This document shows, in pieces, positions 17,201-20,200 of a stretch of DNA of 64,000 nt (position 1 is the first letter of the stretch; each line of letters begins with the position of its first letter). The stretch is from Yuukianura sp. NJ FZ-2021 (Eukaryota). The stretch spans positions 8,184,001 through 8,248,000 of the forward strand of contig CM102284.1 in assembly GCA_046563655.1 (NCBI GenBank), written 5' to 3'. A model generated the notes under the pieces. It saw only the letters and a list, made by a program, of their open reading frames with translations. It was not told the DNA's origin and searched no databases. The translations under genes and the position numbers were made by a program.

Positions 17201-20200
17201 AAATTTTGAAACTGAACCCACAATTTTTCGGATTTCGGAAGTAGAAACTTCTTTGGTCTTTGTTTTTCCTGTGTATCATTTCTTTTGGAAAAGTAAAACG
17301 CTAGAAAGTTATGAGGTGTGATGGTGTTTTAAAAAAAACAATATTTTGGAATTTTTGAAATTTCTTGTAAGTTAGGAAAATGCAGTTTAGGGAAATTTTA
17401 GCCTCATCGTCACTTTGAAATTCGTCATTACTCATTAGTGTAGATATTAGTGTAAAGATTACAATAAGTTGAGGTCACCTGTCAAGGTCATCGATGAGTC
17501 GATCGTAAAACACTCTATAAGTTTCGTGGACCCAAAGTCTCATCAGTTTCTGTGGTTCCGTCATGTGTTTCGGTGGAATCAGAAGCAGACCGTTGATAAC
17601 TTTGGAAAAGTCGCGTAAATTGTAGACGTAAATGCCTGAAGAAAGACAAAATTTCTGGTTTTCAACTTTCTCAAAATTTTGAAAAGTTTGAATACTTCGA
17701 CAACGTTTTTTAGTACTTTTTGCTGGAGTTGGAAGAAATTTTGAGATGCAGGCTTTGTACACGTCCATTGTTGCATTGACCATTGGCTTAAAAAAAAAAC
17801 AGAAAAATCGCTGTAGAATTATTCAAAATTTGAAAAATTTTGACATTTCAAATTTTCGAAAATTTTGAAATCTTAGCTCTGATTACCCTGGCCCATTTTA
17901 GAATGTCGCTTTCAAATTCTTTTGCAAAGTGCCAGTCCACAATGGCCGTAAAAATCTTTTTGAGCGTCGCATCTTCAAAAGCATGGATCGCCAAAATGCT
18001 AAAATGTCTGATGAATCTGGTCGTGACATCATTGGCTCCGCCTCCAGGGGCTCCCATAGCGCTGACCAGGAGCTATAACGTCAAAAGTCAAAAGGTCAAA
18101 GGTCAAGGTCAGTTTCAAGGTCACCTAAAGGTTAAGTTTGTTTACCAAATCGATGAGGTTGATAGTAGTCGTGTCCTTCTTGTCATACCAATGACCATGG
18201 TCAATCCACTGACGCAGGAGTTCAATTGGTGGTTGGGCGCCATAGATTTCCTTCTGGGGTAAACTGAGGTCATCCACAAACACGACACATTTTTTGCCCA
18301 CGGGAGGACCAAAGTAGCCTTTCTTCCTCCGGTCACATTTGGACATGATGATGTCTTGCGTCTGATTGGCTGTCGTCCGAGCTGAAAAGTTAATCACATT
18401 CGGAACCCACTTGTCCTTTGGTAAGTTTGTGAGGAAGGACAGCGTAATCGCTGATTTCCCGATTCCGGTCGGACCAACAAACAGCAACGGGAATCCATTG
18501 TTCAAATACGTTCTGAGAAAGAATGTTTGGCGAGCAGTTTCGTCTGTTGGGATAATGAGCTCAGAGGGCTAAAAAACAAACAGAAAATCATTTAGCACCA
18601 AATCAAAACCAGTTTTTTTCTTTTGAAATTTTCGAAATTTTGAAAAAATTACTTTTGCATTTGGCGGAATTTTGGAGGCTTCTCGATCCAGAATGTCCAG
18701 CCAGAACATCCACATGTTCGTTCTCTTGTCACAAATGTAGTCAAACACAGTCCCCTTTTCCGGAAAAAGTTGATTTTTGTTCAATTTGAAGCCCTTGGGC
18801 TTCTGGTAGTCCTTATTTGATCCACCAATCATAGATCGAATAAAAGCATCGAATTTGTCCCGCCCTTCAGCGGTCAAAGTCCCACCAAGGCCCCAAACCG
18901 TGGCAAAAACAAAGCAGAACTGCAACCAAACGCTGCTTTGTGGTCCTTGATCTTCCGTTCCAGATTCTCCGCGGAGAAAACAAGTATAGACACGAGTGAA
19001 ACTCTGAAAAAATAAGTTAATTTCAATTAATCGTAAACTCATTACGTTAATTCAACTAACACTAATTAAATTAATTTTTCAACTTACTTGGAATAAATGT
19101 ATCTCCGAAGTTTTGATGACAACTTTGCACTGGAATCGGATAAAGTCAAAGGCTGGCGGAATGAGCCACTCACACAGTTCGTCAATCAGTTCCCGTTGTT
19201 CTTCTGTGACAGATTCAGGGAGCCCTTGAATATACGAGTCCTTAAGAGGTCTCCAGCCAAGGGCATGTGGTTCCATGTAGATCATGCCACATCGGGACAC
19301 GGTCGCTGGTGAAGCTTGTTCCAAATCTGCTGGTTCAAACATCATGTTCATCTCGGGCGTCATCTACCAAAAAATTCCAAAATCCAATATGAAATCTTCT
19401 AAAAAAGTTGAAGATTTTTAAGATTTCTTGTCCTTTTTAGAAAAGTTGTCACCTGAATGATTTCTCCGGACATGAGACATAGTTTTTTGTTGTCGTCCAG
19501 CACCGTGTTCATGTTTTCAATCCAAACAGCATCTACTGGTCCATCGAACACGACCCACTTCCGATCGTCACTCGTGCTGGACGCCATTTCTCTAAAAGCG
19601 TTTGCGACGACTCCATCTGACCACTCATGTGACACAGGGTCGAAGCACCCGTAGAGTTGACCCATCGTGATAGCCTTGGGGTTAATGATCTTGTACTGCA
19701 CTTTCCTCTCATTCATGCCTGGGGTCAAGGTTTTTTTTAAATTTGATTTTCCTTAACAGGTTGGGTAATACCTCTTAAACAAAATCAACTTTTCGTTGTC
19801 AAGGAAACTTGCCTGGAATCTTGTTCACCCGGATAGCCGTGAGAGCGAGAGCAAGCGATTGGTAGGAACAAGTTTTTCCACCCATCGCTTCTCCAACCAC
19901 CATCAATCCATGACGAACCAGAATCATCTCGTACACTTGCAGCGTCTTTTCAACAAAACTGAAATTTCGAAAACAAAAATTCAAAAATTTTCAAAATTTT
20001 CAAAATTTTTAGACTTTAGAAAATGTTAACCTGTGAGTCGGTTGGAGGCCTCTCTTGGCACAGACTTCCTTAAGCTGTTCAATGAGCGTGTCCAAGTCAG
20101 CTTTGAGTAGAGCAATTCCCGGAAACAGGTCAGAAATGATTCCTTGGAACAATGGAATGTCCTGAGAGAGAGTTTTCAAAATTTTGATGTAATTTTTGTA

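Follow-up and report, generated by a model that had tools for sequence, protein, structure and literature searches.

The question raised by this locus is whether a short interruption of a dynein heavy-chain gene, located in a 64,000-nucleotide (nt) stretch of DNA (positions 8,184,001 to 8,248,000 of the forward strand of contig CM102284.1, assembly GCA_046563655.1, Yuukianura sp. NJ FZ-2021; hereafter the window), is an intron created by the insertion of a transposon. The original prediction, made without database searches, was that a miniature inverted-repeat transposable element (MITE) with CAAGG termini is itself a complete GC-AG intron of this gene. The analysis described here suggests that the interruption, 94 nt in length, is probably a lineage-specific GC-AG intron made by the insertion of a hAT-like miniature element.

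The candidate intron and its gene

The gene lies on the minus strand, where tblastn searches with the proteins P0015, P0025, P0054 and P0117 and with open reading frames (ORFs) of the metagenome contig L001 gave it a span of at least 26114-8218. It codes for an axonemal dynein heavy chain of the inner-arm, DNAH3-like type; one exon returned a Pfam AAA_8 match, and the commonest known phyla among the neighbouring dynein clusters in the protein atlas were Arthropoda, Mollusca and Platyhelminthes. The site is defined by the following features, a slash here and below marking a boundary between exon and intron:

19813..19958, minus strand: upstream dynein exon, from the AAA2 P-loop (...GEAMGGKT...) to ...VNKIP, located by tblastn with P0015, P0025, P0054 and an L001 ORF
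19719..19812, minus strand: candidate GC-AG intron of 94 nt, phase 1 inside the Gly codon G/GC, picked as single best splice solution by each of the 4 reference proteins
19453..19718, minus strand: downstream dynein exon, ending ...GEIIQ, placed by homolog alignment

Across positions 19719-19812 the sense strand reads ...AACAAGATTCCAG/GCAAGTTTCC...AACCTTGACCCCAG/GCATGAATGAG, and excision of exactly these 94 nt, with the boundaries AG/GCAAGT...CCCCAG/G, restores the protein sequence ...NKIPGMNERK... and leaves a frame open for 2394 codons over 33 consecutive exons (21643 to 9625); when the 94 nt are kept, the dynein frame stops at codon 393. The gene is otherwise intact, all of its exons aligning to homologs. 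Enumeration of all in-frame, stop-free splice pairs that start with GT, GC, AT, GA or GG and end with AG or AC found no in-frame GT-AG pair at this interruption and only two canonical solutions, namely the 94-nt GC-AG intron and a 61-nt GC-AG intron that would add 11 residues, the former being the sole canonical solution that gives the homologous protein. Both the agreement of all four references and the stop encountered on retention thus uphold the proposal that the dynein frame needs a 94-nt intron with the donor AG/GCAAGT. Homologs are collinear across the junction (residues 184/185 of P0025), and among 120 homologs listed for the downstream exon, 103 align without gaps over at least 8 residues on each side of it. 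In the assembled coding sequence AGG is found at 62 of 7184 positions (0.86%), and an unselected insertion would seldom be expected to hit a point at which the two splice sites arise in the same register, on the assumption that the element has no strong target preference.

Splice sites were scored by leave-one-out weight matrices built from a curated set of 43 dynein introns, which had been retained from 52 candidate rows. The nine rows dropped (25826-25141, 25008-24967, 18993-18952, 18679-18620, 18598-18560, 17892-17811, 17886-17811, 17877-17787 and 9435-9399), four of which had GC donors, were removed because their alignment scores were negative or low, because only one reference backed them, because they were tied, or because they clashed with a better-supported solution. 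The dynein introns, at 9086-24887 of the minus strand, have a median length of 84 nt and a smallest of 55 nt, with the donor consensus CAG/GTAAGT and an acceptor consisting of a T-rich run followed by CAG. By these matrices the donor CAG/GCAAGT of the candidate intron ranked first of 43 when position +2 was left out and sixth of 43 when it was included. The acceptor scored -2.9 against a median of 8.7 and ranked 43 of 43, the T-tract of the host type being missing. Viewed as a U2-type GC-AG intron, the candidate has a strong donor match beyond position +2 together with a pyrimidine tract and acceptor context that are atypical for the host, and this combination of a strong donor supplied by the element with an unrefined, exon-like acceptor fits a young, co-opted intron. 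Its G+C content is 34% against an intron median of 24.5%, and its RNA is predicted to fold at -19.1 kcal/mol (z = -2.9), 2 of 200 shuffles folding equally well. An Rfam match to the mir-981 precursor at 19732-19819 of the plus strand, antisense to the gene, reached 17.5 bits where the gathering score is 51 and was set aside as a chance match.

Within the curated set three introns are GC-AG, all of them with AG/GCAAG at the donor (19812-19719, 13282-13197 and 13098-12348), and the remaining 40 of the 43 are GT-AG; GC donors in human introns are put at about 1% in a published account (PMC3167603). Introns 13282-13197 and 13098-12348 have neither inverted-repeat ends of the CAAGG type nor blast similarity to the element, and so are not recognisable copies of it. 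The second of them, 751 nt in length (12348-13098, minus strand), contains a 673-bp (base-pair) non-coding element at 12357-13029 with the perfect 18-nt inverted-repeat ends TAGGCTGGTTAAAAAGCA, flanked by the perfect 9-nt direct repeat TTTGTACAG (13038-13030 and 12356-12348), which duplicates the 3' splice site; minus this element the intron measures 69 nt, and a second copy of the 673-bp element was not found in the window.

The inverted-repeat element and its flanks

The candidate intron is made up of 1 nt (G), an 86-bp element and 7 nt (ACCCCAG), and an earlier intron at 19719-19812 is unlikely because only these 1 + 7 nt lie outside the element. In both copies the ends of the element are set by its inverted symmetry. 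The element is represented by two copies, which carry no strand assignment:

19726..19811: 86-bp non-autonomous inverted-repeat element, in which the two arms of the 289-bp element are joined and the interior is deleted (blastn and alignment)
55959..56247: 289-bp full-length copy, with 13-nt terminal (85%) and 32-nt subterminal (88%) inverted repeats

The shorter copy matches the left 47 and the right 43 bases of the longer one with their order kept and with the ends exact at CAAGG... and ...CTTG, some 200 bp of the interior being missing. Blastn of the 86-bp sequence against the ends of the 289-bp copy gave expectation values (E) of 9e-07, 9e-07 and 7e-06 at 82-89% identity in the 64-kb window, where the best unrelated matches had E values of at least 0.003; the earlier description of the intron body as both ends of this MITE without its middle is borne out by these values and by the exact termini. 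The 86-bp copy keeps a 23-nt internal inverted repeat (83%). At its inverted-repeat ends the 94-nt intron has 8 of 12 positions matching, the first 4 in succession; none of the other 42 introns exceeds 6 of 12 or a run of 2, and this is the one intron of the 43 that consists of the element. Two consensus strings supplied with the original prediction gave three and two matches, at these loci only, and no match in 100 shuffles, a control that is partly circular in that the strings were derived from those same copies.

The two copies, both short and non-coding, thus lie in two genes about 36 kb apart, and blastn found no further copy in the 64-kb window. The element was not found in 80 metagenome loci (808,280 nt) among the matches listed for the P0085 scan, its conserved strings had no match in two scans of a viral contig collection, and Rfam returned nothing at the 289-bp copy.

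With terminal inverted repeats, short length, a lack of coding capacity and more than one copy, the family has the features of a MITE. Its superfamily is a separate matter. Duplications of 8 bp are made by the P superfamily as by hAT elements, and the assignment to the P superfamily that had been drawn from such duplications is not supported, CAAGG termini combined with an 8-bp duplication fitting hAT equally well or better. For hAT elements the terminal motif YARNG and target-site duplications (TSDs) of 8 bp are described in PMC3014272, and the CAAGG termini fit this motif. The resemblance to hAT-type MITEs extends to the short, non-coding form and to the presence of both terminal and subterminal inverted repeats; the differences are that the duplications are imperfect here, the flanks agreeing at only 6/8 and 5/8 positions, and that no transposase or autonomous partner was found in the 64-kb window. 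On this comparison of termini and flanks hAT appears at least as likely as P.

At the donor side of the intron the terminus of the 86-bp copy reads CAAGT, and CAAGG stands at the other three ends of the pair of copies, as had been stated when the intron copy (GCAAGT) was set against the expected terminus (GCAAGG). With the CAAGT terminus, position +6 of the intron is a T and agrees with the host consensus GTAAGT. This G-to-T change may have been selected, two copies being a sample from which selection cannot be told.

The 289-bp copy had been described as free, a description that required correction, for the copy is contained within an intron of another gene:

55940..56288, plus strand: GT-AG intron of 349 nt in a carboxylesterase-family (COesterase) gene, recognised from the frame, the splice sites and a Pfam COesterase match on the neighbouring exon

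The boundaries of this intron are ...DW G/GTAAGCC ... TTTTCAG/GC VAHLDDL..., and the element lies 19 nt from its donor and 41 nt from its acceptor. Less the element and one flanking 8-mer, the intron would measure about 52 nt, which is near the smallest dynein intron (55 nt). At 56 kb, then, the element family is an ordinary passenger inside an intron.

In the dynein gene the 86-bp copy is flanked by a pair of 8-mers, both read from the sequence in the sense orientation:

19812..19819, minus strand: upstream 8-mer ATTCCAGG, of which the last G is the first intron base and the rest is exon (codons I-P-G)
19718..19725, minus strand: downstream 8-mer ACCCCAGG, of which ACCCCAG closes the intron on its 3' side and includes the AG acceptor, the last G being exon

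As the original prediction had it, the GC donor is composed of the last G of the upstream 8-mer and the terminal C of the element, and the AG acceptor comes from the downstream 8-mer. ATTCCAGG and ACCCCAGG match at 6 of 8 positions and, outside AGG, at 3 of 5; the AGG part of the match is uninformative, because every intron of the form AG/G...AG/G has it. The 289-bp copy is flanked by TCCGTCAC and CCCGTGAT, which match at 5 of 8 positions at a site that is under no splice constraint. An 8-bp duplication around the element is plausible from these flanks.

Taken together, these features suggest the following course of events. A short DNA transposon, non-autonomous and bounded by terminal inverted repeats, would have inserted into uninterrupted dynein coding sequence at the sense target ATTCCAGG, its CAAGG termini probably placing it in a class that makes 8-bp duplications, and the empty site before insertion would have read, without interruption, like ATTCCAGGCATG. 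The final G of the upstream target copy, joined to the terminal CAAGT, would then have formed a near-perfect GC donor, AG/GCAAGT, and the downstream target copy would have provided the acceptor CCCCAG/G in the same register. Removal by the spliceosome of the element plus one target copy, 94 nt in all, would restore the mRNA with the junction ...ATTCCAG/GCATGAAT....

Relatives at the site and rival explanations

The nearest database relatives are uninterrupted at this site. The metagenome protein P0085, which is 99% identical over 81% of an 89-residue exon query, reads ...NKIPGMNERK... through it. L001, a genomic metagenome contig with a G+C content (39.4%) equal to that of the window, contains the coding sequence of P0025 (87% identity to the exon query), and a single ORF of 1146 codons in L001 spans the site. 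P0002 (88%) reads ...AAKIPGFSEHK..., likewise uninterrupted, its own ORF starting at an intron about 15 residues upstream. None of P0085, L001 and P0002 is a known sister species.

P0085, when compared with window positions 19450-20240, reads through three window intron sites in all, this one and two others, and carries after ENMNTV an out-of-frame insert of about 28 codons at a point where the window is continuous. This insert has no similarity to either copy of the element, the best score of 29 lying below the window-wide background of 36.

A number of observations weigh against the insertion reading and have to be set beside the evidence given above. L001 lacks all 15 of the window introns over its ORF, so that the absence of one of them says little, and P0085 may represent partly spliced RNA, or genomic DNA with a different intron set. 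As to the target-site duplication, the two 8-mers disagree in two of their eight bases, and among the 43 curated introns three reach at least 6 of 8 matches and eight reach at least 3 of 5, an agreement that is not above background; of the 8-bp TSD claimed originally, what stands is the presence of flanking 8-mers alike at 6 of 8 positions, and what falls away is their statistical weight, which does not exceed that of other introns of the gene. The age and activity of the element family are not judgeable from one other copy that is 82-89% identical. Splicing of the 94 nt is itself a prediction from sequence, and the intron has the weakest acceptor among the 43 and lacks a clear branch point. 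Lastly, 49 of 150 cluster representatives, comprising paralogs and orthologs from other organisms, have an exon break at the 16th residue past the P-loop, a position 4-6 nt upstream of the present site, and a CCAGG direct repeat allows the start of the inserted block to be moved over 5 nt, a range that includes the old phase-0 position. The overlap with that position is taken as a coincidence favoured by the crowding of introns in this linker, and it keeps alive the second of the alternatives considered below.

The alternative that survives best, unlikely as it is, holds that the insertion is not spliced at all, being instead a loss-of-function allele, part of a decaying gene or confined to one assembly haplotype, with the appearance of a GC-AG intron a coincidence. 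In its favour is the weakness of the acceptor, last among the 43, and exonic insertions of transposons are described in PMC11282704 as normally inactivating genes. Set against this are the intact frame of 2394 codons over 33 exons, all of which align to homologs, and the register itself, in that AG/GCAAGT, CAG/G and the exact frame would be expected together at fewer than 1% of coding positions. Moreover, the divergence of the copies (82-89% identity) and of the 8-mers (2 of 8 positions) speaks against a very recent hit, and the gene still looks selected.

An improbable second alternative is that the intron is old, the element having colonised the widespread intron at the 16th residue past the P-loop, where deletions and a shift of splice sites subsequently left only element sequence. 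It was weighed against the intron positions found nearby in the 150 cluster representatives, which had been found with the upstream exon and were sorted by custom regular expressions as follows:

24 of 150: break directly after ...YQ
39 of 150: phase-0 break after residue 16 past the P-loop (...EK/V, DNAH7-like)
10 of 150: phase-1 break inside that codon (...DLHA/G, vertebrate DNAH3-like)
20 of 150: extend beyond the conserved Met, with the break some 5 residues later
17 of 150: continue to xNPK
27 of 150: unclassified
13 of 150: P-loop match absent

The phase-0 and phase-1 breaks at residue 16 both lend this explanation support, the latter sharing the phase of the window intron, as does the capacity of the element family to enter introns, exemplified by the 56-kb copy. 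Read-throughs on the acceptor side, 'mfq/GLMEENK' in a Mytilus fragment and 'ymq/GLMNENK', agree with the phase-0 site and put the old site 2 codons before the conserved Met; the linker that precedes this Met varies in length, so the alignment is soft within 1-2 codons. The positions are nevertheless distinct. The window intron falls in phase 1 at residue 20 of a 20-residue linker. Counted from the Met, it is 4 nt further downstream than the phase-0 site and 6 nt further downstream than the vertebrate-type phase-1 site; counted from the P-loop, it is 4 codons away from the old site. P0085, L001 and P0002, which share the 20-residue linker ending ...K(I)PG, have no intron there. An old intron would, furthermore, have had to shrink to 1 + 7 nt of non-element sequence around an element with both termini intact, its donor and acceptor rebuilt from element or exon sequence, and the resulting acceptor has none of the T-tract that is present in the other 42 introns.

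No clear case of an exon boundary at the exact position of the window intron was seen among 270 homolog fragments mapped, the variable linker limiting the resolution of this comparison. The original prediction had named an intron at the same codon position and phase in outgroups as evidence that would tell against it, and the outcome was a near miss: no clear boundary at the exact position was seen in those fragments, whereas an old intron 4-6 nt upstream is widespread. The window dynein is without introns at three positions that recur in dynein fragments of many other organisms: directly behind ...YQ, at the 16th residue past the P-loop, and some 5 residues beyond the Met. Some other window introns match fragment boundaries elsewhere, at amino acids 448 and 706 of the local model (fragments P0135-P0284).

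The weakest alternative, that the same GC donor is joined, always or alternatively, to the internal acceptor CTGTTAAG/ to give a 61-nt intron (19812-19752) with 11 added residues in the variable linker, is very hard to credit: it is the only other canonical in-frame, stop-free solution and linker length does vary among homologs, but the closest relative, P0085, reads exactly ...NKIPGMNERK..., no homolog has such an insert, and 4 of 4 references prefer the 94-nt solution.

The window contains, in addition, several features that stand apart from the dynein site. Foldback or MITE-like repeats are located at 46604-47021 (185-nt arms, 99%), at 14446-14762 within a 1273-nt dynein intron (108-nt arms, 93%), at 42004-42160 (38-nt arms, 89%) and at 45817-46325 (86-nt arms, 90%). 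Tandem FkbM-type methyltransferase genes (Pfam PF05050) occupy 58345-59454 and 60242-61177 of the plus strand, share a 300-nt stretch that is 90% identical and have relatives only among metagenome proteins, at no more than 59% identity. Tandem repeats occur at 7140-8083 (period 161 nt, 5 copies) and at 51262-51646 (period 52 nt, 6 copies).

Comparison with known transposon-derived introns

The gain of introns from transposons is established in algae, fungi and protists. If the insertion reading is true, the dynein intron would be a clean, textbook example in an animal-like genome, the element remaining recognisable and both splice sites traceable base by base, and it would show how a GC donor can be built by an insertion itself, a route that could help to account for local excesses of GC-AG introns. 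As a single instance in which splicing is a prediction, it constitutes a lead rather than a result. A bolder and doubtful extension of the insertion reading is that the CAAGG family is an animal introner with a built-in rule, by which insertion at NNNNNAGG in either orientation would yield AG/GCAAG...NAG/G and be neutral to splicing; the excess of AG/GCAAG donors (3 of 43) would then be the worn record of earlier insertions, in a lineage that has lost old dynein introns and holds new positions.

Single transposon-derived introns are described from many eukaryotes in PMC11282704. Of the published surveys, one gave introners in two animal groups only (10.1101/2022.06.06.494994), and a later one added validated introners in a sea urchin and a tunicate (PMC12130899). 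The first of these describes, among others, families in which the TSD provides one or both of the splice sites, and Aureococcus families with 8-bp TSDs (10.1101/2022.06.06.494994).

As far as one window tells, the present case corresponds to known introners in mechanism, which is that of introner-type gain, and in boundaries, the intron being 1 nt plus the 86-bp element plus 7 nt; it does not extend to the many similar introns in many genes by which introners are defined, the window offering one intron and one passenger copy. The suggestion in the original prediction that the family could be a lineage-specific intron-generating system has this single intron behind it. Its likeness to the introners with terminal inverted repeats and TSDs (Micromonas pusilla IE1; Gozashti et al. 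2022, 2025), as these are described, lies in the presence of a short non-autonomous transposon in coding sequence, the division of the splice sites between element and target, and the restoration of the mRNA, predicted in the present case. In Micromonas IE1, according to PMC11282704, the element gives the 5' gc or gt and the TSD gives the 3' ag. By way of contrast, the donor is here divided between a G from the target and a C from the element, the putative duplication is of 8 bp compared with 3 bp in IE1, the host looks animal-like, and splicing is predicted.

Among animals the closest comparison is with the tunicate Fritillaria borealis, from which MITE-like introns at species-specific positions, with terminal inverted repeats and TSDs, are described in PMC11282704. 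Those introns are reported there as mostly AG-AC or AG-AT and as requiring an altered spliceosome, whereas the dynein intron would be an ordinary GC-AG intron with a consensus donor in a gene of which 40 of 43 introns are GT-AG. The introners of Aureococcus, as described in 10.1101/2022.06.06.494994, share with it the involvement of an 8-bp duplication, putative in the dynein gene, with the difference that they bring both splice sites with them and lengthen the mRNA by 12 nt, whereas removal of the 94-nt intron would add nothing.

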